Below are positions 8,145-58,464 of a stretch of 64,000 nucleotides of DNA, piece after piece (the first letter of the stretch is position 1; every line of letters begins with the position of its first letter). The notes under the pieces were generated by a model. That model had not been told where the DNA came from. It did not search any database and saw only the letters and a program-made list of their open reading frames with translations. The translations under genes and the position numbers were made by a program. The stretch is from a virus, in the IMG/VR virus record IMGVR_UViG_3300034102_002101, positions 32,001-96,000 of that record, one strand, 5' to 3'.

Positions 8145-8148
8145 TATT

Positions 8149-8946: not shown

Positions 8947-9023
8947 TATACGAAGTAATACTTGAATCACCGGATGTTTATTTTGTTATATTATTAATAA
9001 ATACCGATTTATTATTATTCATT

Positions 9024-9032
9024 ATATTTATA
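9024..9032 (+). promoter_or_regulatory. Putative late promoter ATATTTATA upstream of tnpB
   Basis: 9 nt before ATG 9042. Confidence 0.45.
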
Positions 9033-9041
9033 CGTAGCGTA

Positions 9042-10199: not shown

Positions 10200-10237
10200 A
10201 AATTGTTGGTAGTTGACAAGTTTACGTTTTTTAACGA
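10105..10237 (+). ncRNA. Putative TnpB omegaRNA (scaffold plus about 20-nt guide)
   Basis: Hairpins at 10118-10131, 10142-10159, 10163-10185 and 10191-10207; GTCAAC (10149-10154) is complementary to terminal GTTGAC (10212-10217), a possible pseudoknot; guide would start at 10218; 5' boundary uncertain. Confidence 0.65.
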
Positions 10238-10246
10238 ATTTATTAT

Positions 10247-10255
10247 ATATTTATA
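10247..10255 (+). promoter_or_regulatory. Putative late promoter ATATTTATA
   Basis: 6 nt before ATG 10262. Confidence 0.5.
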
Positions 10256-10261
10256 TAATAT

Positions 10262-10693
10262 ATGAGAAATACAATGATCGGTTTATTAATTTTTGGAGCT
10301 ATTGGGTTAGTTCTTTTATCTGTATATGATAATAATTATAGCTATAATAGTTTACCGAGGAAAGTAGCTATACATTCAAAATCAGAGATTAAGTCTATGG
10401 ATGGTGTTTTTGCTATATTGGGAACAGGTTCCATGGCACCATACATTAAAGGTGGAAACCCTACTGCTATAGTTGCTTATGCTGCAACGGATAAGAATAT
10501 TAAGTTTATTGGATTACGTAAACAAGATCTGGTAATTTATAGAAATGGTAATAGCTTTATTATTCATCAGTTGGTCGGCAATGACTCTGCTGGATGGATA
10601 GTATCTGGGTATAATAACAAATTTTATGATTCCGGTAGAGTTACCGAAGAAAACTTTGTTGGTAAGGTTGTTCTTGTGTATGAATTGGAATGA
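10262..10693 (+). CDS. Membrane-anchored S26 (signal peptidase I/SipW-like) peptidase
   Basis: N-terminal hydrophobic helix; GTGSMAPYI (catalytic Ser box), DLVIY, IIHQL, SGYNN...D resemble the S26B boxes. Confidence 0.6.
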   Translation: MRNTMIGLLIFGAIGLVLLSVYDNNYSYNSLPRKVAIHSKSEIKSMDGVFAILGTGSMAPYIKGGNPTAIVAYAATDKNIKFIGLRKQDLVIYRNGNSFIIHQLVGNDSAGWIVSGYNNKFYDSGRVTEENFVGKVVLVYELE

Positions 10694-10755
10694 ACACAAA
10701 ATAAACGGATAATAACTAAAATATTACCATATTTATTTGCATAACCTAGACACAA

Positions 10756-11616
10756 ATGATTTATAAAAAAATAGCAGATTTCCCAACAAAGTCAATAGGT
10801 TCATATACTGGAAATGAATTACTACTGATATCCGATACTGTTTACAATGCGAAGATAAAAACATCGGAATTAAAACAATTTTTCTTGGAAAGTGCTAGTT
10901 ATATAGCTAACTCCGGAAATATAAGCATAAAGGCAGGTATTAATGGTACCGAAAGTGTGAATTTTTCATCGAGCGTAAACATCACCGGAGATGTTTCTAT
11001 TTTAGGGGTTTTGAATGTAACTGAGGTAAACCAGATCAATGTCTCGGATTTATACGTTAGAGATAAGCTGATAGTATTAAATTCTAGTGGTAGTAATTTG
11101 ACTGCTACTGGTAGCGGTATTACGGTCAGTGGAAGTTCCGGGACAGTGTCTTCTGTATTGTTTGATCCGGCTTTACCATCTAAATGGAAAATAGATGGGA
11201 AACAAATTGTTACCGTATCTGACGCTCAGACATTAACAAATAAAGTATTAAATTCTACACAAATTACCGGTAGCGTTACTTTATCCGGTTCTTTAGATAC
11301 GTTTGGTATCAGGAATATTAAGTTCACCTCACTATCCGGTGCCAGTCCAGTTGTGCCACTTACTAATGAGTATGTATTGCTAAATTCGTCAAATGGTACC
11401 GCTAGTTTAAGTCCATGCGCAGGAATGACTGGTAGGGTAATAACAATAAAGAATCTAACACCCGGTGATTGTATGATATCGGCTAGTTCTGGTGAGCTTA
11501 TAGATAGAGAAAATTCATACACATTGGAAATGGATGATGCTATACAATTTATAGGTTCGGCAAGTGTTTGGTATACGTTCGCATACTCACCAGCAAGCGA
11601 AGTCATAATCACGTAA
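10756..11616 (+). CDS. Tail fibre-like virion protein
   Basis: KKIADFP anchor-like start; VRDKLIVLN...GSGITV; AQTLTNK motif; ATATTTATT at 10729-10737 upstream. Confidence 0.65.
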   Translation: MIYKKIADFPTKSIGSYTGNELLLISDTVYNAKIKTSELKQFFLESASYIANSGNISIKAGINGTESVNFSSSVNITGDVSILGVLNVTEVNQINVSDLYVRDKLIVLNSSGSNLTATGSGITVSGSSGTVSSVLFDPALPSKWKIDGKQIVTVSDAQTLTNKVLNSTQITGSVTLSGSLDTFGIRNIKFTSLSGASPVVPLTNEYVLLNSSNGTASLSPCAGMTGRVITIKNLTPGDCMISASSGELIDRENSYTLEMDDAIQFIGSASVWYTFAYSPASEVIIT

Positions 11617-11924: not shown

Positions 11925-13241
11925 ATGAGTGGAATCCCAATTTATACATTACCAGAAAAGACCGAACTAGATCAGTTAGATTATATTCCGGTTTCTAGTG
12001 ACACACAAACTTCCAAAGTAACTCCGTATAATTTTAGAAAGAACATGGATAAGACAGTATCGTTGCCCACAACAAGCAGCGTATCGGCAGATGATTATAT
12101 AAAGGTTGATAGTTTCACATATGGAACAAGAGCATTGAGAGTAAGAAATTCGGTAATATATAGCGCAATGACAAGTACGACAGCAGCATTTAATGAACTG
12201 GTACTTGGCTCTGACTTGAGGATGACAAACGCAAGAGTTCCGTTACCTCATTCCCATTCGATAACGAATATGACGGATTTTGATCCCGCCAACTACATAA
12301 CGAATTCTAGATTAGGTTTACCGAACGGTATTGCCCCCCTCGATTCAAGTAGCCTAGTACCATCTACATATTTACCACCATTTCCAATAACTAACATACC
12401 AAGCGCAAGTGGGATATTCTCGAACGCAGTTAACTTAATATCCGATAATAATGTTCAGGGAGCAATTGATAAATTATCAAATGCTGCTTATATACTAATA
12501 AATTCAGCATCTGCTGGTGTCACAGGTACCACTAATGTACAGGGAGCACTTGGTCAAAAGTTGAGTTTACTAGGTGGGTCTATGACTGGTTTACTCGTAG
12601 CACAAGCAAACAACTTTAGGATAGGTGCCAATGACTTAATAGCAATATCGAATAATATAGGAATAGGAACATCCACACCAACTACAAAATTAGACGTTGC
12701 TGGTAACATAAAGGGTACCGATTTTATCTATGTCACCTCGAACGGGTTTCCGCAATTTGTATTACAAGACCCGTCTGGTCAAACTAATAGATATGCTATT
12801 TGGAGAGATCCTTCCGATGTTTTATCTATTGGTCCACAAACTACTTCTGGTGCCGGTACCGCAGCGTTATCGATATACAGGGACACACAAGCAACATTTA
12901 GTTCAAATCTGCGGGTTGTTGGTGATATAACGGCTTTTTATTCATCCGACAGAAGACTAAAGGATAACATTAAAAATATAGAAAACCCAATAGACAAGAT
13001 ACGAAAAATTAACGGTGTATCGTTCGACTGGAACGACAAACAGAGTACTCATACTGGTCATGATATCGGGGTGGTTGCACAAGAGATTGAGTCAGTTTTC
13101 CCCGAATTGGTTACGACCAGAGACAATGGGTATAAAGCTGTTAAATACGAAAAGTTGGTCGCGTTATTGATTGAGGGAATCAAGGATCTACAAACGCAGA
13201 TAGATGAACTGAAGCGGGATGATATATCACGTTGTCCGTAA
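11925..13241 (+). CDS. Tail fibre with C-terminal intramolecular chaperone (peptidase S74)
   Basis: NIGIGTSTPTTKLDVAG repeat; S|DRRLKDNI autocleavage motif; GVVAQEIESVFPELV...VKYEKLVALLIEGIKDL. Confidence 0.9.
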   Translation: MSGIPIYTLPEKTELDQLDYIPVSSDTQTSKVTPYNFRKNMDKTVSLPTTSSVSADDYIKVDSFTYGTRALRVRNSVIYSAMTSTTAAFNELVLGSDLRMTNARVPLPHSHSITNMTDFDPANYITNSRLGLPNGIAPLDSSSLVPSTYLPPFPITNIPSASGIFSNAVNLISDNNVQGAIDKLSNAAYILINSASAGVTGTTNVQGALGQKLSLLGGSMTGLLVAQANNFRIGANDLIAISNNIGIGTSTPTTKLDVAGNIKGTDFIYVTSNGFPQFVLQDPSGQTNRYAIWRDPSDVLSIGPQTTSGAGTAALSIYRDTQATFSSNLRVVGDITAFYSSDRRLKDNIKNIENPIDKIRKINGVSFDWNDKQSTHTGHDIGVVAQEIESVFPELVTTRDNGYKAVKYEKLVALLIEGIKDLQTQIDELKRDDISRCP

Positions 13242-13362: not shown

Positions 13363-13884
13363 ATGGCAGCCGTACCACCAACAGGACAAATCAGTGTATC
13401 AGATATTATATCTGCCGCGAATGACCAATATGCAACACCGGACTTTTCTACAAATGTTAGTTTATCTGCCTTGAGAGCTAGGCTAAAATTAGGTCAAAGT
13501 AATGTTCCGTCATCAAATTTAAACGTTGGATTCTCATCGACCAGAAATTCGCAGTTTATCACATATAAAATAACAGCATACCCAGAGTCCGTATCAACTT
13601 ATGCTACAAATAATAACGGAATAATTGAGGTGGAGATAGATGAGGAAATGCTTGTTGGATATGGGTTAAGCGTAACAGTGTCATTAAGTACGGGAGAAAC
13701 AGAGACGAAGAATATAATAGGTACAGAATCAAATATATTTTCATTAACAGGTCTGAGTGGGGATTCCGTTACCGCACGTACCGTAACTGTCCGCGACAAT
13801 TTATCTGCACATCAAGTATCGGATAGTATAATCGTTCCATATGGTGGAACAACAAATAACGTAGTTTTTAGAAATCGAGCATGA
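13363..13884 (+). CDS. Tail-fibre-associated small protein
   Basis: N-terminal PPTGQISVSDI resembles starts of genes that follow S74 fibres; beta-rich C-terminus. Confidence 0.5.
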   Translation: MAAVPPTGQISVSDIISAANDQYATPDFSTNVSLSALRARLKLGQSNVPSSNLNVGFSSTRNSQFITYKITAYPESVSTYATNNNGIIEVEIDEEMLVGYGLSVTVSLSTGETETKNIIGTESNIFSLTGLSGDSVTARTVTVRDNLSAHQVSDSIIVPYGGTTNNVVFRNRA

Positions 13885-14576
13885 ATATTGACAACCTAAA
13901 AAAAATATTAAGTACTACAGCAATCACACTGAAAATTAAATCCAGTGGGATTAATGTATTCTGTTTAATGCCCCAAACAATAACTAGCTATTCAAATGGA
14001 ATTGAAATATATGATTATGTTGAGGACAAAAAATATCTAATAACTCAGCACACTGAGCTTGATTTCATATCAACTAAATATTTCTCATACCCGTCCGATA
14101 AGGAATTCATAAATTATGAAGATTTCCATAAAAATAATTCAAGTAATATACAAATTAACAATAATAAAAGCTTATTAACCTTTACTAAAATAAAAGAATT
14201 TTATCAACAATTTAATGATGATGATACATCGATAAACAGACTGAAATTATTGAATCACTTTTGTGATGTTGAAATTTTAAAAAGATTTGGAATACGGAAT
14301 CTGGAAAATTTTTATACCAACCGCAAAGGGTGGATCGATGAAGCCAAATTAAGAGTCACTTCTATGCTAGAAAATTCGATGAATTCTTCGATATCAAAGT
14401 TGAACGACGAAAGAAATTTATATGTGAGTAATAACGACACTTCATCTATCGAGGAAGTTGATTTGGTTATATCATTGATAAAAGAATCTGTCGCGGAGAC
14501 AACTTTCGATGATGTTAATGAACTGAACGACTTTTATAAAGCATGGCCGAGAATTTTATTGCCAACACCATTTTGA
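13881..14576 (+). CDS. Hypothetical protein
   Basis: ATGA overlap with the upstream gene; no motif recognised. Confidence 0.6.
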   Translation: MNIDNLKKILSTTAITLKIKSSGINVFCLMPQTITSYSNGIEIYDYVEDKKYLITQHTELDFISTKYFSYPSDKEFINYEDFHKNNSSNIQINNNKSLLTFTKIKEFYQQFNDDDTSINRLKLLNHFCDVEILKRFGIRNLENFYTNRKGWIDEAKLRVTSMLENSMNSSISKLNDERNLYVSNNDTSSIEEVDLVISLIKESVAETTFDDVNELNDFYKAWPRILLPTPF

Positions 14577-15259
14577 AAAAATGTATAACAATTTCATGTG
14601 ATGTTGATTATGAGACTTATGCGATAAATTGCGTAAAGTCTATAAGAAACGTTTCGTCTGTTGATGTGATGGTAAGAACCATCGATTTTAAGTCCGAAAT
14701 AATTGAATCGATTTACAATACCACGACCATGGTTGACATGGTTAGATTGTCAACAAAAAAACGGATAAAAAGTAAAATAGATAGATTGGATCTAAACAAT
14801 TGGCGACATAATTTATGTTCGGATAGATCTGTGTATGCATGTCATAGTAGATTTGTAAATGTGATGGAACTATTTAAGAATGGATATGATATGGTATATT
14901 CGATTGACTGTGATTTTGTATTTAAAAAAAATTTTGATTCTCTTTGGTCATTGGAAGGTGATATTTCTATGCATGATCCTTTTGATGATAGTGGATTTGA
15001 AGATGCTATTCTGTATAAAAACACGGATAATTCAATAAAATTTTTAAGATCTGTGAATGATATAATTTCAGAAGATCCATTTTTCTGGGAAAAAGATATG
15101 GAAGCCATACAAAAATCGAAGATGGTGTGCGGGTTAAAAATTTCACAACTTCCTATGATATATAGAGATCATTTATGTTCAGACGATAGTTTGATATGGA
15201 GTGGATATGGAAAGTCTAAATTCAATTCTAATTTTATATATGAAAAAAATTGTAAATAG
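14573..15259 (+). CDS. Glycosyltransferase-like protein (GT-A, DxD)
   Basis: HSRF...YSIDCDFV and FFWEKDM; paralogous to 18226..19005; TTG 14573 overlaps the upstream stop (alternative ATG 14543). Confidence 0.55.
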   Translation: MKKCITISCDVDYETYAINCVKSIRNVSSVDVMVRTIDFKSEIIESIYNTTTMVDMVRLSTKKRIKSKIDRLDLNNWRHNLCSDRSVYACHSRFVNVMELFKNGYDMVYSIDCDFVFKKNFDSLWSLEGDISMHDPFDDSGFEDAILYKNTDNSIKFLRSVNDIISEDPFFWEKDMEAIQKSKMVCGLKISQLPMIYRDHLCSDDSLIWSGYGKSKFNSNFIYEKNCK

Positions 15260-16316
15260 TTATAACGAATGGGATAAATTGGAAGAGGTTATTGTTGGGT
15301 GCGGAATACCAACTAATATACCAGCAATCGATTTTACATTTAAAATGTTTTTTCATGATAACCTGATTGGGATAAACGAATTTAGACACGAAATATTAAA
15401 AAAACATATAGATGAGCACAACGAGGATATAGAATCATTCGCAGAGCTATTGAAAAGTCTTGGGGTAATAGTGAAAAGGCCGAAAGTTCCTGATAAGATT
15501 CACAAGGTGAAAACACATTCATGGAATAGTGAGGTTCACCCATCACTAAATGTCAGGGATTTGACTGTCGTCATCGGAGACGAAATAATAGAAACCCCAC
15601 CTTCATGTAGATGGAGATACTATGAGACAGATTTCATGAAACATCTATTTCTCGATTATTTCAATAATGGAGCTAAATGGACACAAGTCCCAAAACCAAT
15701 TATTACGGACATGTCATTTGATATGTCTTATATCGAGAAAACTGGTGGAATTATAAACAGAAAAGAATCTTATATGGATTGTGGATATGAGATAATGTTT
15801 GATGCCGCTAACATGATGAGATTCGGGAAACATATATTGTTCAATTGTTCAAATGAGAATAGTAGAATGGGAATGAAGTGGTTACAAAGACATTTAGGAG
15901 ATAAACATATTGTCTGGGGAGTAGATATATGCGACAATCACATAGATTCATCTATATTACCACTAAAACCAGGCTTATGTATTGTCACCAGAGAGGATTT
16001 TTGGCACAAATTACCTGCACCATTACAGAAATGGGATAAGATATACATTCCACAACTCAATAGAACTACAGAAGAATTTCATATGCAGGGAATTAAGTTG
16101 GCATCTCCAAGGATCGAATTAAATGTATTTTCAGTATCACCGGAGTTGGTCATTTGCCACCCAAACTATGAAAAAATTCTAAATCAGAAATTGAATCCAC
16201 ATGGAATATCGGCAATTGGATCTAGAATGAGACACTGTGAAATCTTTTCTGGGGCACATCATTGCACTACACTAGACATTAGACGAGACGGAATCATGGA
16301 GGATTATTTCACATGA
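15240..16316 (+). CDS. Amidinotransferase (glycine amidinotransferase/StrB1 family)
   Basis: VNSYNEWDKLEEVIVG N-terminus, RD motif, catalytic Asp (FDAA), His (HIDS) and Cys (GAHHCTTLDIRR). Confidence 0.9.
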   Translation: MKKIVNSYNEWDKLEEVIVGCGIPTNIPAIDFTFKMFFHDNLIGINEFRHEILKKHIDEHNEDIESFAELLKSLGVIVKRPKVPDKIHKVKTHSWNSEVHPSLNVRDLTVVIGDEIIETPPSCRWRYYETDFMKHLFLDYFNNGAKWTQVPKPIITDMSFDMSYIEKTGGIINRKESYMDCGYEIMFDAANMMRFGKHILFNCSNENSRMGMKWLQRHLGDKHIVWGVDICDNHIDSSILPLKPGLCIVTREDFWHKLPAPLQKWDKIYIPQLNRTTEEFHMQGIKLASPRIELNVFSVSPELVICHPNYEKILNQKLNPHGISAIGSRMRHCEIFSGAHHCTTLDIRRDGIMEDYFT

Positions 16317-17263
16317 CACCAAATGAAAGTTATGATATTTTATATCGAAATAGGTACGGTAAATCTTATAAATTTCTTAAAAACTTTAAATCTCACACGA
16401 ACGTTGACCAAATATCACGAGAAATTGACCTATATATCTGCGGGTCAGATTTTGATACTGATTTAGAAAAAGTAACTCAATATTTTTACTTAAAATACTT
16501 TGATAATTTCAAAACATATAATTATGCCGATATAATAAAAAATATAATTACTATAAACTCTAAACAATACGAACATATTGTAAAAAATAAATTCTCAATA
16601 CATTACAAGAGAAATGAGGTGGAGACATTATCTGACATATTTTCTAATAAAAATGTCACTTATAGAACTGTACAAGCAAATCTATCAAGTAAAAAGACAC
16701 ATATAAGAGAATTAGTTTTATATTACAAATGTATGAAAAGTATAAAAATTGGAGAATTTGATCAGATCGATACGTTCCATTTTATTTTATTATATAAAGT
16801 AATAAAGAAATTGATTTTGGAAAAAAAGATACAAACGATTAATGCCGTAAGAATCCTTCCTAGATATTATGGTCATCTTCCAGATATAGTAAATCGTGTT
16901 GCGAAAGATGGGGATATATATTATTCTGACGGAGGATCTAATTTTCCGTCGATAACTTCGATTTTTTCAAACACGGTACATCTACAATGTCAGTCAGAAA
17001 TTCCTGATCTTGAATTTGGGACTATTCCGGTATTATCTTCACCGATGGTGTTTTTTTCCAATTTAGATGAATCAATTAATAAATTTGTAAAACTTCCATT
17101 CAGTTATTTTCCAAGTTCAATTTCAAATGGAGATGCTGTTATCGATGATGAATACTTGAGTTTTGGAAAATTTGAAAATGATAATTGTACAATTGAAGGT
17201 ATATTCAATGGAATTAGAAATATGGTTCTAAATTTGGATGAAATGAATATGGAGAGTTTATAA
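16313..17263 (+). CDS. Hypothetical protein
   Basis: 316-aa ORF, ATGA-coupled to the amidinotransferase; no motif recognised. Confidence 0.6.
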   Translation: MTPNESYDILYRNRYGKSYKFLKNFKSHTNVDQISREIDLYICGSDFDTDLEKVTQYFYLKYFDNFKTYNYADIIKNIITINSKQYEHIVKNKFSIHYKRNEVETLSDIFSNKNVTYRTVQANLSSKKTHIRELVLYYKCMKSIKIGEFDQIDTFHFILLYKVIKKLILEKKIQTINAVRILPRYYGHLPDIVNRVAKDGDIYYSDGGSNFPSITSIFSNTVHLQCQSEIPDLEFGTIPVLSSPMVFFSNLDESINKFVKLPFSYFPSSISNGDAVIDDEYLSFGKFENDNCTIEGIFNGIRNMVLNLDEMNMESL

Positions 17264-17269
17264 AATATT

Positions 17270-18223
17270 ATGAAATTATTTGACGACTTAAATAATGTTC
17301 AACTATTGTACAAATATATGAAGTTCGATATATTTGAAAAATCCTCCGGTGGCTCAGTAACCCATGGCAAGTCGATAACTATAATAATAATAGATAAATG
17401 TACATTAAATTGCAATTTCTGTCGAGGTGGGATTGACGCTGATATTATCAATCTCCGAACTTCGAATAAGATTATGGATTTCCCTACGTTCGTAACAATC
17501 GTTGATAAATGCATCGAATTTGGGATATGTAAATTTGATTTATCTCCACCAATAGGGGAGCCGTTTATGGACAAAGGAATTTTCGATAAGTTGGACTACT
17601 TAGAAAAGAATAAATCCGTATCAGATATATTGATAACGACTAATCTGACATTATTATCGGAGGATGATCTAATTAGACTATCGAATTACAAAAAGCTGAT
17701 GATTCATATTTCCGTATATGGATGCTGTCCAAATTCATATAAAGAACAAACTGGGAGAGATTTATTTTTAAAATTTAAAAAGAATCTTAGTATTTTATAT
17801 GAGTTTTGTGAATTGAATCCATCAAATTTTAAAATTAGGTTCAATATTCGATGTTTATTGGATTACGAATCGGAAATTTTTCTTGCGTTAGTTAAATTTC
17901 ATTCAAAATTTGGTTTTTTATTGAGGACAAATGAGGTTTCCAACGTTAATAGAGCAGGAAATATAACAACAAAAACTGATCGTAGTATCAATTCAAAGTG
18001 TGGGATATGTCCATATGGACCAGGAAGCGGAGGTGGGATTGATCAGTATGGAAATCTTCTATTTTGTCCGTTTAACGATATAAAAAAGGTTGGTGTAGTT
18101 GGTAATGTACTTGACATGTCAATCTCAGACATATATGATGGCGAAAAATGGAAGTCTGTAATAGAAAACCACAAAAACAATCGATATGTTGGGATATGTT
18201 CCACATGTGATGAAAATTTCTAA
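17270..18223 (+). CDS. Radical SAM protein with SPASM/twitch domain
   Basis: CTLNCNFC (CxxxCxxC), GEPF, C-terminal CPY...GNLLFC...CSTC. Confidence 0.9.
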   Translation: MKLFDDLNNVQLLYKYMKFDIFEKSSGGSVTHGKSITIIIIDKCTLNCNFCRGGIDADIINLRTSNKIMDFPTFVTIVDKCIEFGICKFDLSPPIGEPFMDKGIFDKLDYLEKNKSVSDILITTNLTLLSEDDLIRLSNYKKLMIHISVYGCCPNSYKEQTGRDLFLKFKKNLSILYEFCELNPSNFKIRFNIRCLLDYESEIFLALVKFHSKFGFLLRTNEVSNVNRAGNITTKTDRSINSKCGICPYGPGSGGGIDQYGNLLFCPFNDIKKVGVVGNVLDMSISDIYDGEKWKSVIENHKNNRYVGICSTCDENF

Positions 18224-18225
18224 CT

Positions 18226-19005
18226 ATGTTAATAGTAACTGCCTGTGACATCAATTATTATGGATACGCAAAACGATTGGTAAAATCAATTAGACATAAA
18301 TCACCTAAATGTAAAATTTTACTAAAGCTGATAGATTTTCATAATAACGAATTGATAGGAGATGATATACAAATCATAGAAGAAACCACGGGACTTTCTG
18401 GTATTCCAAATATGATTGTAGGTGGGATGGGAAATAGACATTTGTTGCGAACAATAGATGATGGCGTGAATAAGTCTATCGGTATAGATGATGTGAAGCA
18501 TTCTAAATGGTTGGTCTCTAAGAGACAGTGTTATTCCAGCAATACTAGGTTTCGATCAATTTTACATTCGTTTGACTTGGATGAAAATGTCATCTATCTC
18601 GATGCTGATACAATAGTCAATAGAGAATTGGCTGAATTAGAAAGTTTATTGGATTGTGATGTAGCTTGCCGTAGAATGGTTGATGAAAGATATCCAGATG
18701 GAATAGCATGGCAGTGTAGTTTTATATACGCCAAATCAACATCAATAAATTTTATTGAATCTACCATGCAATCAACAGAAAAAAATATGTTTTTCTGGGA
18801 CAGTGATCAATATGAATTTGAAAAAAATTATCAAATCCACAAAGACCATATACGATTTAACATAATTTCTTCCGATATAGAGTATGGTGCGGGGATGCGT
18901 GACACAAATTTCATATACAATCCAAGTAGTTATGTTTTTGCTGGTAGTGGTACGAATAAAACTTCTAATCTTGATTTTATAAAAATGTTAAAACTGTATG
19001 AATAA
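18226..19005 (+). CDS. Glycosyltransferase-like protein (GT-A, DxD)
   Basis: IVTACDINY, NTRF, IYLDADTIV, FFWDSDQ. Confidence 0.65.
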   Translation: MLIVTACDINYYGYAKRLVKSIRHKSPKCKILLKLIDFHNNELIGDDIQIIEETTGLSGIPNMIVGGMGNRHLLRTIDDGVNKSIGIDDVKHSKWLVSKRQCYSSNTRFRSILHSFDLDENVIYLDADTIVNRELAELESLLDCDVACRRMVDERYPDGIAWQCSFIYAKSTSINFIESTMQSTEKNMFFWDSDQYEFEKNYQIHKDHIRFNIISSDIEYGAGMRDTNFIYNPSSYVFAGSGTNKTSNLDFIKMLKLYE

Positions 19006-19741
19006 GAATATACATCTGATGTGGAAGGTTAAAGACTTGGATAATTTACATAGATCGTGTTTCAATTCTTGGGTTAAACATCATCCAGATTGGATAGTAA
19101 AATTATACGACGATGTTGAATTGGATACCATTATAAAAATAAAACTTCCTGATTTATACAATCGCTTTGCTGGATGTGACGGTATCAAAAAATCGGACGC
19201 TTTCAGGCTTGGGTTGGTTTATGTTTTTGGTGGATTATATGTTGACATTGACACATTTTGTTTTAAACCAATTGATTCTCTTGTTGTTAATTGTGATAGA
19301 TGTTTTTTCGAGGATGTAAAAATTGAGGGAGGAATATACGATTATAAGCCAAAGTTTGAATATACCAATGCAATATTTTATGCTAATCCCAAAGATAGGA
19401 TGATTGGAAGAATAATAACAGACCTAATAAGATACGGGGACGATGATAAGACAATAGACAAGAATATGAATGTAATATTGCATACCGGGCCAGAATTCTT
19501 GTCAAACTGCATAAAAAAGTATGGAATGATATGGAATATTGACGTAATCGGGAGTGATAAGTTCGAATGGTGTGATAAAATGAATCGACAGTCTATGGTC
19601 AAAAGTGGAAAGCTGATTGTAAATTCTGGTAGTTATGGTCTACATCTAGCAGTTGGTAGTTGGATATACGGGTCAATGAAATTTAAATACTACGAAGATG
19701 TTAAAGACATAAATTTGGAGGCAATGGATGATTATCGATAA
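18998..19741 (+). CDS. GT32/OCH1-like glycosyltransferase
   Basis: IHLMW, SW..HPDW, KSDAFRLGLVYVFGGLYVDID, TGP. Confidence 0.85.
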   Translation: MNKNIHLMWKVKDLDNLHRSCFNSWVKHHPDWIVKLYDDVELDTIIKIKLPDLYNRFAGCDGIKKSDAFRLGLVYVFGGLYVDIDTFCFKPIDSLVVNCDRCFFEDVKIEGGIYDYKPKFEYTNAIFYANPKDRMIGRIITDLIRYGDDDKTIDKNMNVILHTGPEFLSNCIKKYGMIWNIDVIGSDKFEWCDKMNRQSMVKSGKLIVNSGSYGLHLAVGSWIYGSMKFKYYEDVKDINLEAMDDYR

Positions 19742-20432
19742 TAAAAATATACATTTTATATGGTATGGTGGGGATATTCCAGAATTAAATTTGCAATGTA
19801 TCGAATCTTGGCGAGTTTTATTTCCTGACTGGAATGTGATTGTATGGAATCAATCCGATTTGGATAACATAGTCATTAAACATTTCCCACAAGTAACGGA
19901 TTACGTAAATAGATTTGGGGAATTTTCAAAAAATGAACAGCGGATAAAAAATAACATGTATAGATATATTGTTGTGTATTTATATGGTGGATTTTATTGT
20001 GATGTTGATGTCATGTGTTTTAAGCCATTACATATAGATGATTCGGATCTACATTTTTTTATGGAATATCCATTGGACGAGTTTATGTATGATATCTGCG
20101 ACCCTTATAAACAACTAATTTCGAATGCGATATTCTATTCCGTGCGAGGAAATAAATTTCTTAGGAGAATAGTATCTGAAATGATCAATTACCCTTTGAC
20201 AATAAACGTTTTAAAACATAAGAAGGTGGGTGATGGTGATATTTTTATGTTGTTCAATGCGTGTCATTTTCTGACCTCAACAGTTGATAAGTATTCGAGT
20301 TTATACCCATTTAAAATGCACGATAATCAATTATATGAACCTATCCAAAAATCCCTACGTTTGGAATTTATAAAATCCGAAAATAAACCAAATTCTTGTT
20401 TTGGATTACATGTTTCGACTGGATTGTGTTAA
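19728..20432 (+). CDS. GT32/OCH1-like glycosyltransferase
   Basis: IHFIWYGG, CIESW..FPDW, RYIVVYLYGGFYCDVD. Confidence 0.85.
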   Translation: MIIDNKNIHFIWYGGDIPELNLQCIESWRVLFPDWNVIVWNQSDLDNIVIKHFPQVTDYVNRFGEFSKNEQRIKNNMYRYIVVYLYGGFYCDVDVMCFKPLHIDDSDLHFFMEYPLDEFMYDICDPYKQLISNAIFYSVRGNKFLRRIVSEMINYPLTINVLKHKKVGDGDIFMLFNACHFLTSTVDKYSSLYPFKMHDNQLYEPIQKSLRLEFIKSENKPNSCFGLHVSTGLC

Positions 20433-20438
20433 AAAATA

Positions 20439-20466
20439 TTGACTTTTGTAGTTAAACTGCTACCAT
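20439..20466 (+). promoter_or_regulatory. sigma70-like promoter TTGACT-N16-TACCAT with TG extension
   Basis: Intergenic, 8 nt before ATG 20475. Confidence 0.6.
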
Positions 20467-20474
20467 AATACAAT

Positions 20475-21089
20475 ATGAAATCAATTTGGGAAACCGTATC
20501 ATTCTTCGAAGAAGAAATAGCAAATTACTGTGGATCTAAATACGCAGTTGCTACCGACTCATGTACAAATTCTATATTTCTATGTTTAAAATACTTAGAT
20601 AATCCAATCGACGTAATAATCCCAACAAAAACTTATATTTCTGTGCCTATGTCCGTAAAGCACGCAAATTATGGTTTAAAATTCGAAAACATAGAATGGG
20701 AAGGTAGTTATCAACTCGGAAATACACAAATAATCGATTCTGCCTGTAGATTTGAGGAAGGTATGTACTTAGACGGAACATTCTGTTGCCTTTCCTTTCA
20801 TTTTAAGAAGATAATACCGATAGGTAGGGGTGGAATGATATTAACGAATGACAAAGATGCCGCTGACTGGTTACGGATGGCTAGATACGATGGGCGACCA
20901 ACGTACTCATACAATGATATACTAAAAACAGGTATAAGTGTGATGGGATACCATATGTATATGACACCGGAACAAGCTTCCCGTGGAATTGAACAATTTT
21001 ATAGGGCAAAGTCAGAAGGAAAGAAGGTTTGTGGATCATCCTCAGAATTTATGGTTGATCTATCAAAACTAGACATATTTAAAACATGA
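20475..21089 (+). CDS. DegT/DnrJ/EryC1/StrS PLP aminotransferase (short form)
   Basis: FEEEIANYCGSKYAVATDSCT, IIDSA, SFHFKKIIPIGRGGMI (PLP lysine); only 204 aa. Confidence 0.85.
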   Translation: MKSIWETVSFFEEEIANYCGSKYAVATDSCTNSIFLCLKYLDNPIDVIIPTKTYISVPMSVKHANYGLKFENIEWEGSYQLGNTQIIDSACRFEEGMYLDGTFCCLSFHFKKIIPIGRGGMILTNDKDAADWLRMARYDGRPTYSYNDILKTGISVMGYHMYMTPEQASRGIEQFYRAKSEGKKVCGSSSEFMVDLSKLDIFKT

Positions 21090-21907
21090 AAAAAATTTAC
21101 GTTCTCGGTAATGGTTTATTAGGCAACTACGTATACAGTTACCTATCTAAGAGGGGAAAGTCGGTGGAACAAGTAACAAGAAAACAGCTTGATTTTTCTA
21201 TAATAGACCTATCGGAGTTTATCGACAATAATATGTTTGATGAATATTCGGTAATAGTTAATTGTATAGGAGTATTAAAACCTAATATAGATAAAGTTGG
21301 TCTAGATGTAACAGTAAAGATAAATAAGAACCTACCAATAGCATTGAGCAACATAGCATCGTTAAAAAATATTGATGTTATAAATATATCATCGGATTGT
21401 GTGTTCTCCGGTAAAAAAGGAAATTATACCGAGAACGATTTTTGTGACGCTACAGATTATTATGGATTAACAAAGTCACTAGATTCCGTAAATACTACTG
21501 TTATAAGGACAAGTTTTATAGGCCATGAGATAAATAACAAGATGGGGATTCTTGAATTTGCATTACGTAATTCCGGTAATAAGGTCAGTGGATATACGAA
21601 TTGTATCTGGAATGGGATCACAGCATTAGAATTAGCTGATTGGATAAACCATATAATAGATACAGATAGTTATTGGTGTGGGGTGCAGCATATATATTCA
21701 AAATCAAAAATATCGAAATACGATTTATTACATCTAATAAACGAGGTATATGAACTAAATCTGAAAATTATACCAGTTTTGGCTGAAGAGATAGTTGGTA
21801 CTAAAATAGAAGGTATCCTCGACAGAAGCCTGTCGTCTATTTTTCGTGCTCCGGTCAATTCAAGCATAGAAGAACAATTAATATTATTGAAAAGTTATAC
21901 ATTATGA
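21086..21907 (+). CDS. rmlD: dTDP-4-dehydrorhamnose reductase-like SDR
   Basis: GNGLLG, ISSDCVFSGKKGNYTE, YGLTK. Confidence 0.85.
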   Translation: MKKIYVLGNGLLGNYVYSYLSKRGKSVEQVTRKQLDFSIIDLSEFIDNNMFDEYSVIVNCIGVLKPNIDKVGLDVTVKINKNLPIALSNIASLKNIDVINISSDCVFSGKKGNYTENDFCDATDYYGLTKSLDSVNTTVIRTSFIGHEINNKMGILEFALRNSGNKVSGYTNCIWNGITALELADWINHIIDTDSYWCGVQHIYSKSKISKYDLLHLINEVYELNLKIIPVLAEEIVGTKIEGILDRSLSSIFRAPVNSSIEEQLILLKSYTL

Positions 21908-22821
21908 AAACAGCAGTTATTGGTGGAGCGGGATTTATCGGTAAACAGTTAGTATGTGGATTACAGAGGTCTCACATATTTGATGTTACGTCTATAGATA
22001 TACTTGAAAACACAAATTGTAAAAATGTGATATGTGACATAACTAATTCTTACAATATACAACAAGCATTGGTTGGCTTCGATTACGTATACTTACTGGC
22101 TGCTGAGTCGGAGGCATCAAAAAATACAACAGACCCGGTTAATTCTATGGACCTAAACTTAATGGGAACAGTAAATGTACTAAACTCATGTGTAAAAAAT
22201 AAAATAAAGAAGATATTTTTCTGTAGTACTGTTTGGGTATATGATGCATGTGAATCGATTGATGTAAATGAGGATACTCCATTCGATCCAACATATAAAG
22301 GAAATTTATATACAACATCGAAGATTTGCGGAGAAATGTTGATAAAAAGTTATCAACAAACATTTGGTTTAACTTATACTATATTACGATTAGGTACGGC
22401 ATATGGACATGGATGTAACCCACGAACAGCCATGGCTTCATTTGTGCGGAATGCTCACAATGGAGAGACGATAAAAATATTCGGAAATGGTGAAGGATTT
22501 AGATCTTTTATGCATATATCTGATCATGTTAATGCATTGATGTGGGCACTTACCGCTTATGTAGAATCAGATAACCAGATAATAAACTTCGATGGTCCAG
22601 ATAAAGTAACATTGAATGGAATAATAGAAATGTTGAAAGATTATTATCCGGAGTTAAAGGTAGAATACGTAAAAAACAATTTACCTGATTATATGGGTAA
22701 GAATGTTAGTTGCGAAAAAGCTATGCGTTTATTGGGAGGTACAGCAAGAGTAAAATTTAAAGAAGGATTACAAGATTATGTTGAATGGTTCAAAAATACT
22801 AATAGTAGCAACACACGCTGA
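21904..22821 (+). CDS. NAD-dependent sugar epimerase/dehydratase
   Basis: GGAGFIG, YTTSK, G.G..RSFMHISD. Confidence 0.9.
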   Translation: MKTAVIGGAGFIGKQLVCGLQRSHIFDVTSIDILENTNCKNVICDITNSYNIQQALVGFDYVYLLAAESEASKNTTDPVNSMDLNLMGTVNVLNSCVKNKIKKIFFCSTVWVYDACESIDVNEDTPFDPTYKGNLYTTSKICGEMLIKSYQQTFGLTYTILRLGTAYGHGCNPRTAMASFVRNAHNGETIKIFGNGEGFRSFMHISDHVNALMWALTAYVESDNQIINFDGPDKVTLNGIIEMLKDYYPELKVEYVKNNLPDYMGKNVSCEKAMRLLGGTARVKFKEGLQDYVEWFKNTNSSNTR

Positions 22822-23431
22822 TGATGAGGTGCTTGGTTGTGGTGGTATGATATCAAAATGCAATGATACATGTCATGTCCAGATTTTAGTCATTTCCAAT
22901 AGAAGTGACATCAATAACAAGAATTTACGAAATGATCAAATACTGCAATCTAAAAAAATACAAGCCGAACATCATGTTTGTTATAATTTCCTTGATTACT
23001 CGGACGAATTATTGGATACCGTCCCAATCTCGGAAATAATAAAAAAAATAGAATTGCTCAATGCTGCGTTTTTACCTGATTATGTGTTTATACCAAATAT
23101 TGGTGATATAAACAATGACCATAAGGTTACTCATAATGCGTGTTTAATAGCGTTTAGGAAGATACAAAAGAATCAACCTAAGAAGTTAATAGTTTACGAA
23201 GTTCCATCATCAACAACGCAAGGAGAACCATTTCACCCAAATTTATATATCGAATTGTCCAGTAAGAATGTCGATGATAAGATTAAAATGCTATATGTAT
23301 ATTCAGACGAATTAAGGCCAGAACCAAACCCAAGAAACGCACGAGGAATTACGGTACATTCAGAATTTAGGGGTATGGAATGTAATAAACGGTACGCAGA
23401 GGCATTTAAATTATTGTATGAAATCAATTGA
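22778..23431 (+). CDS. PIG-L/LmbE family N-acetyl-sugar deacetylase
   Basis: HADDEVLGCGG and DINNDH metal-binding motifs; YAEAF C-terminus. Confidence 0.9.
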   Translation: MLNGSKILIVATHADDEVLGCGGMISKCNDTCHVQILVISNRSDINNKNLRNDQILQSKKIQAEHHVCYNFLDYSDELLDTVPISEIIKKIELLNAAFLPDYVFIPNIGDINNDHKVTHNACLIAFRKIQKNQPKKLIVYEVPSSTTQGEPFHPNLYIELSSKNVDDKIKMLYVYSDELRPEPNPRNARGITVHSEFRGMECNKRYAEAFKLLYEIN

Positions 23432-24098
23432 TAATAAAATATTTATAGGATACGATTCAAGAGAAATAGACGCATTTAATGCTTGTATGAATTCCATTAT
23501 ATCAAATACCGATAGTTGTCCATTTATATGTGAGCTAAACCAAAACAAACTTAGAAAGAATGGGCATTATTATAGAGAAGTTGATATATTATCATCAACC
23601 GAATTTTCATTTACTCGGTTTCTAATACCACATTTAACTGAATATAAAGGATGGAGCGTATTCTGTGATTGTGATTTTATATTCTTGGAAGATATCCAAG
23701 AGTTGTTTGACTTGTGTGATGATCAATATGCTGTTATGGTTTGTAAGCATGATTATATACCAACAAATAATATTAAGATGGATGGCAAGGTCCAGCACCA
23801 ATATCCCAGAAAAAATTGGTCTTCTCTCGTATTATGGAACAATGCACACCCAAAAAATAAACTACTGACAAAAGATATGGTCAATACACAAACAGGACAA
23901 TTCCTACATAGATTTTCTTGGTTGGATGATAAAGAGATAGGAGAAATTCCTATCCAGTGGAATTGGTTAGTTGGTTGGTATAAAGAACCAAAAGACGGAA
24001 AACCAAAGGCATTACATTTTACTGAGGGTGGACCATGGTTTAAAGAGTATGAGAATTGTGAATATTGTGATGTATATGATATATATAAATTAACATGA
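23418..24098 (+). CDS. GT8-like glycosyltransferase
   Basis: IFIGYDSRE, STEFSFTRFL, FCDCDF, YPRKNWSS, WNWLVG, HFTEGGPW. Confidence 0.8.
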   Translation: MKSIDNKIFIGYDSREIDAFNACMNSIISNTDSCPFICELNQNKLRKNGHYYREVDILSSTEFSFTRFLIPHLTEYKGWSVFCDCDFIFLEDIQELFDLCDDQYAVMVCKHDYIPTNNIKMDGKVQHQYPRKNWSSLVLWNNAHPKNKLLTKDMVNTQTGQFLHRFSWLDDKEIGEIPIQWNWLVGWYKEPKDGKPKALHFTEGGPWFKEYENCEYCDVYDIYKLT

Positions 24099-25009
24099 AT
24101 AAAATAACAGACAGGATTGATAATGTAACTGACTGCTCAAAGTCTTTGATTGTACCTACACCATTCCCGAAATCGGTTAAAATAGAACTTAATTCAAATT
24201 GTAACTATAAATGCTCATTTTGTGCAACCCAATTCAATTTAAGATCAATGGGCAAAATGGATAAACATTTGTTTGAAAAAATAATAGATGAATTATCTAT
24301 TATTGGCATACAAGAAGTTGGTTTATTTTACTTGGGTGAACCGTTTCTCTGTGACTGGCTATCTGACGCAATTAAGTATGTTAAGAGCAAGGGCATACCT
24401 TACGTTTTCTTAACGACTAATGGCTCTGCTATAACGGAAAAGAAGATCTTCGAGTGTATGTTAAATGGACTAGATAGTGTCAAATTCAGTGTTAATTTCG
24501 CAGACAAAAACCAATTTACCGAAATAACGAAGCTTTCTGATAATATATTCAATAGAGTCATAGAAAACATAAAAATCACACATGCGGTTAGGGAAAAGAA
24601 TAATTTCAAGTGTGGAGTATATGTTTCTTGTATCAGATATGACGAAAACCAACCAGAAAGAATGAAACCGTTATTGGATGAACTATCAATATACGTCGAT
24701 GAATTTTACTGGCTTCCACTTTATACGCAAGCTGGATTATTCGATAACTCTACCGTTGTTGGAAATGTAGGTAGACACGACAATCAACGAACTGGTATAC
24801 CTTGCTGGTCAATATTTACTGGAGCACATATCACGCACGAGGGATTATTATCGGCGTGCTGTTTCGATCATAAGAATGAATTTATTATGGGGGATCTAAA
24901 AAGCGACACGTTCGCAAAATCGTGGAATTCTACTGATTTCATCGAATTAAGAAAAGCACATATTAGTGGTGATATACACAATACACAATGTAGAAATTGT
25001 ATATTGTGA
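24095..25009 (+). CDS. Radical SAM protein with SPASM/twitch domain
   Basis: CNYKCSFC, GEPFL, TTNG, PCW...ACCFD...CRNC. Confidence 0.9.
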   Translation: MNKITDRIDNVTDCSKSLIVPTPFPKSVKIELNSNCNYKCSFCATQFNLRSMGKMDKHLFEKIIDELSIIGIQEVGLFYLGEPFLCDWLSDAIKYVKSKGIPYVFLTTNGSAITEKKIFECMLNGLDSVKFSVNFADKNQFTEITKLSDNIFNRVIENIKITHAVREKNNFKCGVYVSCIRYDENQPERMKPLLDELSIYVDEFYWLPLYTQAGLFDNSTVVGNVGRHDNQRTGIPCWSIFTGAHITHEGLLSACCFDHKNEFIMGDLKSDTFAKSWNSTDFIELRKAHISGDIHNTQCRNCIL

Positions 25010-28259: not shown

Positions 28260-28694
28260 ATGACTACGAAAGAATTACGATCAATAATACAGGAAATAGT
28301 TGCTAAGGAAATAAAAGAACAATTTCCAGCACTTATTAGTGAGATATTAGGAAGCAAGAACGCGAAGTTACCATTACAACGCAGAGAATTCGCACCAATA
28401 GCGGAGCAGAAGAGATCAACAGTGACAATAAAAACAGGAAATCCAGCACTCGACAAGATACTATCAGAAACTACTGGTCTCCCTAGGGAAGCATCTTCTC
28501 CAAACGTATCCAGTGAATTTGGTTTGATTGGGGAAGGTACTGTTATTCCACAGACAGATATAAATGGGAATGAGGTCAATATAGATGCCCTACCAGAATC
28601 AATATCAAACATATTTAAGAAAGATTATTCGGCATTACTAAAAAAAGCAGATAGCATAGCAAAGAAGACACATCGTGGCAACTCCCCTCTATAA
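28260..28694 (+). CDS. Hypothetical virion-module protein
   Basis: ORF between the spike and gp25 genes. Confidence 0.6.
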   Translation: MTTKELRSIIQEIVAKEIKEQFPALISEILGSKNAKLPLQRREFAPIAEQKRSTVTIKTGNPALDKILSETTGLPREASSPNVSSEFGLIGEGTVIPQTDINGNEVNIDALPESISNIFKKDYSALLKKADSIAKKTHRGNSPL

Positions 28695-29088
28695 AAAGTC
28701 ACCTGTCGGTATATCATTTCCTATACAACGAGGAAATACTGGGTTTTTTGAACAAACGTTCGATTCTAACGAATCTTCTAAGACAAACATAAAACTATTG
28801 TTATCAACGTATATAGGAGAAAGAAGACTAAATCCATCTTACGGGACAAAGTTATGGACATATCTATTCGAAAACATAGATGACACATCCGAAGAAATAT
28901 TAAAAAACATAATAAGTGAGGATGTCAATAAATGGATACCAGATATTAAAATAATATCTGTTAGTGTAGCAAAAAAAGCAAACTCTGCTGATAATTATAC
29001 ATTTATAATAACCATGACATTTTATTCTTCACAATACGCAAAAGAGTTGCAGGTTTTAAGTGTGGAAAATAGTGTTAGTATCAAATAA
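28675..29088 (+). CDS. Baseplate wedge protein, T4 gp25/GPW-like
   Basis: NIKLLLSTYIGERRLNPSYGTKLWTYLFE. Confidence 0.9.
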   Translation: MATPLYKKSPVGISFPIQRGNTGFFEQTFDSNESSKTNIKLLLSTYIGERRLNPSYGTKLWTYLFENIDDTSEEILKNIISEDVNKWIPDIKIISVSVAKKANSADNYTFIITMTFYSSQYAKELQVLSVENSVSIK

Positions 29089-29093
29089 TAACC

Positions 29094-51508: not shown

Positions 51509-51591
51509 GTTATACCAACAATATACCGATAAATTAAAAAGTCAATCATTTTTGTTGACATCCACCTTAGATTGTGCTTTCTTTTAGAAAG

Positions 51592-53920: not shown

Positions 53921-53921
53921 A

Positions 53922-54560: not shown

Positions 54561-54565
54561 ATTTG

Positions 54566-56384: not shown

Positions 56385-56385
56385 A

Positions 56386-56706: not shown

Positions 56707-56708
56707 TT

Positions 56709-58461: not shown

Positions 58462-58464
58462 AAT

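Follow-up and report, generated by a model that had tools for sequence, protein, structure and literature searches.

A tail-module gene cluster of an uncultured lake myovirus that may make and tailor a guanidino-sugar glycan

The IMG/VR virus record IMGVR_UViG_3300034102_002101 carries, in the stretch of 64,000 nucleotides analysed here (the window), a cluster of 13 co-oriented genes. They encode five glycosyltransferases (GTs) of the GT-A type, an amidinotransferase of the StrB1/SxtG type, two radical SAM enzymes, a half-size DegT-family aminotransferase, an RmlD-like reductase, a PIG-L de-N-acetylase, a short-chain dehydrogenase/reductase (SDR), and one protein without a family. Genes of these enzyme families, with their catalytic residues kept, lie together in many phages. 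With about an even chance of being correct, the region is read here as a virus-specific cassette whose soluble enzymes make and tailor a guanidino-sugar glycan. In other words, the product is most likely a sugar chain with amino groups, and the chain probably carries cationic guanidino groups as well. The record is 120,666 bp long with a CheckV completeness of 47%, the GC content of the window is ~0.33, and the carrier is a large uncultured freshwater (lake) myovirus.

The 13 open reading frames (ORFs) all lie on the + strand between 14543 and 25009 and form two strings, 14543-20432 and 20475-25009, that are separated by a gap of 43 nt (Table 1). Coordinates are window positions, and L-numbers (L001-L038) are labels of compared loci. 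An initial annotation, made from the sequence alone, had described two co-oriented gene strings downstream of tail fibre genes, and the ORF list and the PHROG and Pfam context bear out this description. The start that it gave, 14573, is in frame but lies 30 nt inside the first ORF, which is listed from 14543. All of the families that it named are present according to Pfam, NCBIfam, and PHROGs and, for the amidinotransferase, according to matches to solved structures; however, its list lacked the SDR and the ORF without a family (u316). The 13 proteins are all free of membrane-like segments, defined as a hydrophobic 19-mer of >=1.8 (the maximum KD19 was 1.47).

Table 1. Genes of the cluster and features upstream of it, in window coordinates
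Feature	Position	Strand	Matches and remarks
Large beta-roll fibre-like proteins ("LbR_Ice_bind")	2-3088 and 4301-6619		Upstream of the cluster
Gp10_C fibre	6635-7672		Upstream of the cluster
Tail-fibre protein, C-terminal endosialidase-chaperone (S74) domain	11925..13241	+	PHROG tail-fibre families; Pfam Peptidase_S74 1.9e-18
231-aa protein without a family	13881..14576	+	Between the fibre gene and the cluster
GT8a, GT8-family glycosyltransferase (GT-A, DXD)	14543..15259	+	Pfam PF01501 1.5e-7, 31.7 bits (cut-off 24.3)
L-arginine-dependent amidinotransferase, AGAT/StrB1/SxtG family	15207..16316	+	Start ATG 15207 or 15240; solved-structure matches
u316, 316-aa protein	16313..17263	+	Without a family
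rSAM1, BtrN-like radical SAM enzyme	17270..18223	+	Pfam Radical_SAM and SPASM
GT8b, GT8-like glycosyltransferase	18226..19005	+	Pfam PF01501 5.7e-5, 23.3 bits, just below the cut-off of 24.3
DXD glycosyltransferase (Gly_transf_sug)	18998..19741	+	Pfam PF04488 1.1e-10
DXD glycosyltransferase (Gly_transf_sug), paralogue of the preceding	19728..20432	+	Pfam PF04488 1.3e-11
Half-size DegT-family sugar aminotransferase, 204 aa	20475..21089	+	Pfam PF01041 4.2e-19, 69.4 bits
RmlD-like NAD(P)H keto-sugar reductase	21086..21907	+	Pfam RmlD_sub_bind 7.5e-13; PDB 2ggs 6.1e-10
Extended SDR, NDP-sugar 4-epimerase-like	21904..22821	+	Pfam Epimerase 2e-47
PIG-L/LmbE-family de-N-acetylase	22778..23431	+	Pfam PF02585 6.2e-13, 49.8 bits (cut-off 28.2); phrog_11796 2.8e-26
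Distant GT8-like GT-A glycosyltransferase	23418..24098	+	phrog_28018 1e-57; Pfam GT8 just 20.2 bits
rSAM2, second BtrN-like radical SAM enzyme	24095..25009	+	Pfam Radical_SAM and SPASM; BtrN 4m7t 2.5e-11

The amidinotransferase (database gene call P0001, 369 aa) has no Pfam or NCBIfam match. Its identity comes from full-length matches to solved enzymes, namely SxtG (6u1r, 2.5e-48, residues 9-370 of 371), StrB1 (1bwd, 3.1e-48), HsvA (2.4e-41), and AGAT (3.9e-41). The residues aligned to D179, H227, D229, and C332 of StrB1 are conserved (FDAAN, HxD, and HC, counted in the 1bwd alignment), and the corresponding D187, H233, D235, and C341 are invariant among the 16 amidinotransferase sequences that were aligned. 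We take C332, H227, and D179 to be the catalytic triad of StrB1. The intact Cys-His-Asp triad noted in the initial annotation is therefore both conserved relative to StrB1 and shared by all 16 relatives. The enzyme does not have the features of an inosamine-phosphate-specific StrB1 orthologue: it is no closer to StrB1 than to SxtG, and neither the cluster nor the 47%-complete record yielded a cyclitol synthase family. Its genomic linkage to sugar genes, described below, suggests that it acts on a sugar amine.

The cassette is widespread, and its amidinotransferase belongs to a large family. A total of 540 proteins among 1246 candidates matched at E<=1e-10, and 1959 cluster representatives matched at E<=1e-3. 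The best 120 relatives are all metagenomic and 49-69% identical, and many of them come from contigs 100-240 kb in length; the contig of one representative, P0122, measures 1.27 Mb. Two pattern-based scans of 185,579 species genomes found no close relative, but such scans detect close relatives only, so that absence from cells is not demonstrated. The locus L001 contains two tandem amidinotransferase paralogues (8884-11110) that are 48% and 65% identical to that of the window.

Both radical SAM enzymes match the Pfam Radical_SAM and SPASM models, and BtrN, the 2-deoxy-scyllo-inosamine dehydrogenase of butirosin, is the best solved match of each, which makes the BtrN analogy drawn earlier stronger than it was from the sequence alone. 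A profile of the rSAM1 family (18 sequences) has BtrN as its top solved match (4.2e-13), with the auxiliary-cluster region covered. A CX3CX2C motif (C44, C48, C51) and exactly four more cysteines (C247, C266, C310, C313), spaced much as in BtrN, are invariant in these 18 sequences. In the profile alignment to 4m7s, the last three auxiliary cysteines pair with those of BtrN and the first is offset by one residue; the auxiliary-cluster ligands of BtrN are presumably C169, C188, C232, and C235. rSAM2 displays a CNYKCSFC motif and a C...C...CxxC auxiliary pattern like that of rSAM1, and hhalign (97.4%) shows it to be a homologue of the rSAM1 family along its entire length. SPASM peptide maturases, for comparison, contain a seven-Cys motif and two auxiliary clusters. 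Because just four auxiliary cysteines are kept and BtrN is the best match, rSAM1 and rSAM2 look like twitch-type, BtrN-like enzymes and not like seven-Cys SPASM enzymes. The earlier label of radical SAM/SPASM thus holds for the Pfam model but not for the cysteine pattern. The two enzymes reached 28.9 and 40.3 bits with the NCBIfam model N_Twi_rSAM, whose cut-off is 170, and all NCBIfam maturase models scored far under their cut-offs for them. A role in maturing peptides, including those made on ribosomes and modified after translation (RiPPs), was set aside in view of the four rather than seven auxiliary cysteines and the best match to BtrN; no search was made for precursor peptides. Going by that best solved match, rSAM1 and rSAM2 are predicted dehydrogenases that may oxidize a secondary alcohol of a sugar or cyclitol.

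The DegT protein belongs to its family but is of half size, a qualification that the initial annotation did not make. Relative to GDP-perosamine synthase (3bn1), ~42 internal residues and the whole C-terminal domain (~100 aa) are missing; the two-domain architecture of about 360-400 aa is not found, and the template-modelling (TM) score by target is ~0.35. Its SFHFKK segment aligns with SFFGNK of the synthase, and the lysine that binds pyridoxal phosphate and the cofactor aspartate are kept (D88 and K111/K112 are invariant in 17 sequences). The AlphaFold2 (AF2) model has a mean confidence (pLDDT) of 81.3, and all 38 Foldseek matches listed are DegT-family fold relatives, nearly all of them sugar aminotransferases (best 7.8e-8) and BtrR among them. 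The short length is also found in 16 related loci, in the Synechococcus phage S-SCSM2R, and in the Flavobacterium phage immuto. As this length is conserved, the half-size DegT is a real form and not a fragment. In immuto (L013, 8989-9633), the half-size DegT is 36% identical; its neighbors are a gene for a "pilin glycosylation protein", an epimerase, and GTs, and the annotation shows no amidinotransferase close by.

The SDR looks epimerase-like by its sequence. Its best PDB match is a UDP-glucose 4-epimerase (4zrm, 2.5e-24), followed by MoeE5, RmlB, Pal, and UXS. It does not reach the level of RmlB, the dTDP-glucose 4,6-dehydratase (TIGR01181, 111.5 bits against a cut-off of 365.1), and it has STVWVYD at the place of the catalytic TDE motif that 4,6-dehydratases carry, which argues against a 4,6-dehydratase. 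Without that motif there would be no classical source of 4-keto sugar for the DegT enzyme, and this role would be left to the radical SAM enzymes. The RmlD-like reductase clears the Pfam cut-off; it scores 48 bits with the NCBIfam rmlD model, against a cut-off of 224, and is not its equivalog. The PIG-L protein contains THADDE at residues 11-16, where the N-terminal metal motif of the PIG-L/LmbE family is (A/P)H(P/A)DDE; no solved sequence match to it was found.

Among the GTs, GT8b falls just short of the family cut-off, and its homologue in L004 (14994-15788) scores 31.2 bits with the GT8 model. The second Gly_transf_sug enzyme also has a marginal match to the TcdA_TcdB GT domain (24.2 bits against 23.6). 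The distant GT8-like enzyme, for which no solved sequence relative was found, has an Atlas value of 0.99 to glycosyltransferase clusters and a TM of 0.97 to a GT8 part. u316 has no Pfam match, and Foldseek returned nothing at E<=1e-3. Its AF2 model (pLDDT 73.8) gave only weak matches, with a best VIA Z of 7.3 to Gap1, then GT-B C-domains, and an Atlas value of just 0.78; its C-terminal domain may be Rossmann or GT-B-like. ORFs 24-30% identical to u316 occur in eight related loci.

Do these genes belong together? This was addressed in 30 IMG/VR loci that were picked solely by amidinotransferase similarity (35-67% identity) and scanned with custom hidden Markov models (HMMs) made from our own alignments. 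Some of the loci are near-duplicates, with 22 distinct amidinotransferase sequences among 29 ORFs. A GT of any kind was present in 29 of the 30 loci, PIG-L in 28, a BtrN-like radical SAM enzyme in 25, the SDR in 21, the short DegT in 20, and an RmlD-like reductase in 17. Among the loci with misses, L002 ends right after DegT, and L018, L019, and L037 are short. Gene order is shuffled between groups of loci, and the closest group has the order of the window. In the group with 54-59% identity, the SDR, PIG-L, DegT, RmlD, amidinotransferase, and GT8 genes form a tight run of overlapping or abutting ORFs in which a GT8a homologue lies directly 3' of the amidinotransferase gene. In the group with 50% identity, the amidinotransferase is accompanied by PIG-L, SPASM-type radical SAM enzymes, GT8, GT32-like and GT31-like GTs, an AsnB-like amidotransferase, and a UDP-glucose dehydrogenase, and the cluster adjoins tail-collar or S74 fibre genes or a T4 portal gene. 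Another locus, L038 (5416-17696), contains a 323-aa DegT, ten ORFs with a radical SAM domain (three of them of 528-565 aa), and the amidinotransferase behind a tail assembly chaperone. The linkage of the amidinotransferase to sugar genes is not due to chance.

Relatives of the amidinotransferase are also found in cultured phages. Thirteen of 50,697 cultured-phage records hold one, 12 of them Campylobacter phages and the other S-SCSM2R, and in both lineages the gene sits among radical SAM and GT genes. Co-occurrence with sugar genes across phage genomes had been named beforehand as a check on the initial annotation, and a lack of such linkage as grounds for refuting it. The co-occurrence is borne out by 29 of the 30 related loci and by these two further lineages, so that this attempt at refutation fails. 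Campylobacter Firehammerviruses and S-SCSM2R carry looser versions of the cluster. In the Campylobacter phages CP220, CPt10, and F379, the amidinotransferase is 32% identical over 96% of the query and has radical SAM genes and an NDP-sugar transferase as neighbors (in F379, the order is radical SAM genes, amidinotransferase, radical SAM, NDP-sugar transferase); the radical SAM enzyme beside it is 34% identical to the N-terminal half of rSAM1. However, this module has at least five radical SAM genes and one annotated GT, and no PIG-L, short DegT, SDR, or RmlD was detected in it. Timms et al. 2010 (PMC2853527) described interchangeable modules in CP220 and CPt10 with five radical SAM genes and a putative glycine amidinotransferase, and the available text of that paper gives no function for them.

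The S-SCSM2R version consists of one row of short DegT, radical SAM, GT, 2-oxoglutarate (2OG) oxygenase, amidinotransferase, and GT2 genes. Its short DegT and amidinotransferase are 45% and 32% identical to those of the window, respectively. It differs in that its radical SAM enzyme shows just a weak relationship to the rSAM1 family (hhalign 46%) and in that 2OG oxygenases are interspersed. In the available text of PMC12801897, an AHBA-synthase-like gene, a radical SAM maturase, and an inosamine amidinotransferase of this phage are termed "antibiotic synthesis genes", and a second amidinotransferase, ORF266, is reported in the virion proteome. The gene for ORF266 lies beside KdsA/KdsB.

The cluster is located inside the tail (host-recognition) module, with fibre genes upstream and baseplate genes downstream, as identified by PHROG and Pfam matches. 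The S74 tail-fibre gene forms its upstream border, and a C-terminal segment of this fibre, 46-69% identical, recurs beside the cluster in L001, L003-L005, and L031-L035. The 231-aa protein encoded between this gene and the cluster has no Pfam or PHROG family; ORFs 26-32% identical to it are found at the equivalent place in the closest relatives, L001-L005. Downstream, gp25-like and gp6/J-like baseplate genes occupy 28675-30944. The nearest relatives of the gp6-like protein are from Microcystis phage Mel-JY01 (41%), an uncultured 484-kb phage (38%), and Flavobacterium phage immuto (37%). In related loci, the cassette is likewise bordered by fibre, tail-collar, or portal genes. No DNA near-identical to the window was found in cultured phages. 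Short contigs nearly identical to the DNA of the cluster were also seen in four more lake metagenome runs, which belong to four studies; these contigs span the stretch in short pieces only, and two joints, each on a single contig with 21-23 letters on the short side, were disregarded.

A mechanism for the cassette can be proposed from these enzymes. The five GT-A transferases would assemble an oligosaccharide in the cytoplasm from host nucleoside diphosphate (NDP) sugars, which the epimerase-like SDR and the RmlD-like reductase would adjust. PIG-L would strip an N-acetyl group, thereby exposing a sugar amine. Secondary sugar alcohols would be turned into ketones by the two BtrN-like radical SAM enzymes, and the half-size DegT would transaminate the ketones from this step. 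The amidinotransferase would then move the amidino group of L-arginine to its active-site cysteine and from there to a sugar amine, giving a cationic guanidino sugar. The logic of oxidizing, transaminating, and amidinating is that of 2-deoxystreptamine and streptidine biosynthesis.

Which molecule would receive the glycan? The best guess, held tentatively and at somewhat less than an even chance, is the phage's own fibres or other virion proteins. Consistent with this target are the location of the cassette among tail genes, hydroxylases of the protein type encoded in related clusters, and a sulfotransferase between fibre genes. The hydroxylases are the 2OG oxygenases of S-SCSM2R and an Asp/Asn beta-hydroxylase (PF05118, 9.9e-33) at L004 14481-14963, inside the closest relatives' version of the cluster, which hints at a protein or lipid substrate. 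The sulfotransferase gene (3142-3948, +; Pfam Sulfotransfer_3 1.1e-15, phrog_27463) lies between the two beta-roll genes, and its product could sulfate the glycan or the fibres. Precedents exist in which virus-encoded soluble GTs and amino-sugar enzymes decorate the structural proteins of the virus itself. Mimivirus has fibril glycosylation clusters, and Freeman et al. 2023 reportedly described virion glycosylation in mycobacteriophages. We know of no amidinotransferase or radical SAM enzyme in these systems, and for the present phage a glycosylated virion is a prediction.

A different target would be the surface of the host. In this explanation, which is unlikely, the cluster alters the O-chain or capsule during infection and thereby blocks superinfection. 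The available text of PMC7029224 on pelagimyophages and cyanomyophages describes a hypervariable host recognition cluster with tail fibres, many GT8 enzymes, radical SAM cassettes, and an Asp/Asn beta-hydroxylase nearby, all of which the present region or its relatives share. It argues that GT8-rich clusters beside tail fibres modify the host O-chain, notes that GT8 enzymes are common in lipopolysaccharide synthesis, and makes no mention of an amidinotransferase. A separate GtrB-like GT2 of 419 aa (50249-51508, -) also favors the idea. However, this GT2 has no membrane segment, and neither do the 13 cluster proteins or the other proteins of a second sugar-gene cluster and its neighbors (29 proteins in all, 16 of them from the second cluster and neighbors, without a hydrophobic 19-mer at the above threshold). 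Neither the cluster nor the record gave a Pfam match to a flippase, polymerase, ligase, or polyprenyl-phosphate transferase. Thus neither undecaprenyl-phosphate-dependent O-antigen modification of the Gtr type, with its integral membrane transferase, nor a Wzx/Wzy system was recognized. The lack of membrane segments and of polyprenyl-phosphate machinery argues against the O-chain idea. Furthermore, the phage is apparently lytic and large, so that a lasting serotype conversion would be unlikely.

A second explanation, which is improbable, is that the product is no glycoconjugate but a free aminoglycoside-like or other guanidino small molecule, such as an antibiotic, a compound that inhibits rival phages, or a metabolite for host takeover. 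The enzyme set mirrors aminoglycoside tailoring: five enzyme families are shared, BtrN is the best match of both radical SAM enzymes, and StrB1 is the co-best match of the amidinotransferase. We take the pathway roles to be those of a radical SAM dehydrogenase for BtrN, DegT aminotransferases for BtrR/BtrS and StsC, a PIG-L deacetylase for BtrD, an amidinotransferase for StrB1, and an RmlD-like enzyme for StrL. The label given to the S-SCSM2R trio by its authors and the fusion of cellular amidinotransferase relatives to secondary-metabolism domains, detailed below, point the same way. However, no cyclitol synthase, exporter, or self-resistance gene was detected by Pfam in the cluster or in the 120-kb record (47% complete). 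The phage cluster has instead five GT-A enzymes, a half-size DegT, and a tail-module context that is consistent between loci; its amidinotransferase is about as near SxtG as StrB1; and five to six GTs would exceed the usual need of a pseudo-oligosaccharide antibiotic. Since no cyclitol synthase was found, the tailoring logic of aminoglycosides is shared but the cluster is not an aminoglycoside cluster. The aminoglycoside-like kit proposed in the initial annotation survives in this narrower sense.

It is also improbable that the amidinotransferase is unconnected with the sugar genes. In that case it would make guanidinoacetate, homoarginine, or an amidinated polyamine and be a passenger in a hypervariable island that collects cargo. 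HsvA and AGAT use non-sugar acceptors, the sources that name relatives all say "glycine amidinotransferase", and the island holds unrelated cargo such as a TnpB-like ORF. This ORF (8943-10199, +) is inserted among the tail-fibre genes, contains OrfB_IS605 and a Cas12f1-like TNB domain, matches the phrog_506 transposase, and is preceded by a 282-aa ORF without an assigned function (8098-8946). Against a passenger stands the co-location with PIG-L, GT, radical SAM, and DegT genes, which persists through shuffled gene orders and at least three phage lineages, and the placement of the amidinotransferase gene within the run of overlapping or abutting sugar ORFs in the 54-59% identity group.

Least probable is a glycan on the phage DNA, that is, a cationic sugar hypermodification of a hydroxymethylated base that evades restriction. 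According to Pyle et al. (bioRxiv 10.1101/2023.12.21.572611), phage GT-A and GT-B enzymes acting in sequence with epimerase helpers do place diverse glycans on DNA as hypermodifications. In addition, packaging would benefit from a positive charge on the DNA, and the cluster genes lack a motif of tail-module genes (see below). However, in the available text of that preprint the DNA GTs adjoin 5mYOX/C5-MT or thymidylate-synthase-like (ThyS) genes, and no such neighbor was found in or near the present cluster or in the rest of the record. Among three related records that are rated 100% complete, PF00303 (the ThyA family) occurs in one, ~64 kb from the cassette, and PF12851 (TET/JBP) in none, the latter a weak blank because the family was matched in no control genome. 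The 47%-complete record of the window contains one weak ThyX-like ORF and no hydroxymethyl-pyrimidine gene near the cluster.

The results thus weigh against host surface and DNA as targets but prove nothing. With these and the small-molecule alternative disfavored, and given the position in the tail module, virion proteins are what remains as the acceptor of a guanidino-sugar glycan. Several points count against this interpretation. The amidinotransferase scores 168.3 bits to SxtG and 168.0 bits to StrB1, two enzymes whose acceptors are unlike each other, and because they are equally distant the sequence does not reveal the acceptor. Cellular and distant family members are fused to nonribosomal peptide synthetase A-T, TauD, DAO, or aminoacyl-tRNA-synthetase-like domains, indicating small-molecule metabolism, and none is fused to a GT; the fusion partners of such distant members are uninformative on the phage clade. 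The half-size DegT lacks a domain of the full-length enzymes and may be inactive or have a different role. The short DegT is absent from L027-L035 (the 50% identity group), and L038 has no sugar enzyme by the HMMs and no GT in the stretch scanned, so that the full trio is not universal. The case for a virion target is built from position and the exclusion of alternatives alone.

A further, weak point concerns only the timing of expression. The motif ATATTTATA, at 4288, 6622, 10247, 26362, 28242, and 48215, lies 4-6 nt 5' of the start codons of six + strand genes, mostly on the fibre or baseplate side, and may be a late promoter or leader element. Eleven copies were counted where 6.2 were expected, a number that 4 of 100 shuffles also attain. 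The motif precedes no cluster gene and thus gives no sign of co-expression with virion genes. The T4 late promoter TATAAATA has 18 matches against 16.8 expected, and there are 116 sigma-70-like sites against 105 expected. The timing of transcription is not readable from either count. TTGAC(A/T) boxes seen by eye before 13363, 20475, 42815, 43785, and 51574 had no statistical support and were dropped.

Other genes of the record were noted in passing. The second soluble sugar-gene cluster (53408-63982, -) encodes two FkbM methyltransferases, a nucleotidyltransferase, a UDP-GlcNAc 2-epimerase, two GT2 enzymes (60844-61623 and 63305-63982), and a RuBisCO-large-like protein (55173-56384; Pfam 1.6e-30) whose best solved matches are form III RuBisCO and RuBisCO-like proteins (~1e-26). 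A 1135-aa protein in the baseplate/tail region (38639-42046, +) has FG-GAP repeat and dockerin-type matches. A PARP-like protein (51574-52827, +) contains WGR, PARP regulatory, and PARP catalytic domains (Pfam 3.3e-15), and PHROGs label it just "polymerase". Outside the window, the record holds a TROVE/Ro60-like ORF that adjoins a nucleoside deoxyribosyltransferase-like ORF and a NADAR ORF (L009, 14119-16445), and a Sir2 domain split over two adjacent ORFs together with an EF-Ts-domain ORF (L011, 2740-3439 and 19441-19890).

What does the cluster mean for these phages? Gene content of this type was noted in publications of 2010, 2020, and 2025, in each case with no function, and the cluster belongs to the virus-encoded glycan clusters. 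In full-text searches, literature on guanidino sugars or glycans yielded unrelated chemistry only, and literature joining amidinotransferase, phage, and glycosyltransferase gave no function. To our knowledge, glycan clusters beside tail fibres are common in aquatic T4-like phages and none has a known product, and we know of no precedent for guanidino sugars on a glycoconjugate. Such sugars could have been overlooked because the oxonium ion of a guanidino-hexose, for which an m/z of 204.098 is calculated, differs very little in mass from that of HexNAc (204.087). The gene-level observation of the initial annotation is confirmed and its interpretation is supported in part, the guanidino sugar and its target being what we infer from it. 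If the amidinotransferase acts on glycine or polyamines, the region would be a phage sugar island of the ordinary kind, in which the amidinotransferase gene is an unrelated passenger.

The cassette otherwise gives a chemically specific prediction, the conversion of a sugar amine into a guanidine. A broader proposal, possible but doubtful as a whole, is that many large aquatic myoviruses, and in a variant form Campylobacter Firehammerviruses, coat their fibres or virion proteins with a guanidino-sugar glycan made by a virus-specific aminoglycoside-like route, and that its fixed positive charge aids adsorption to anionic envelopes or masks the fibres. If true, this would be a new kind of glycan modification. 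It would also correct the antibiotic-gene reading in cyanophage S-SCSM2R and provide a function for the modules of radical SAM enzymes and amidinotransferase that have been unexplained in Campylobacter phages since 2010.

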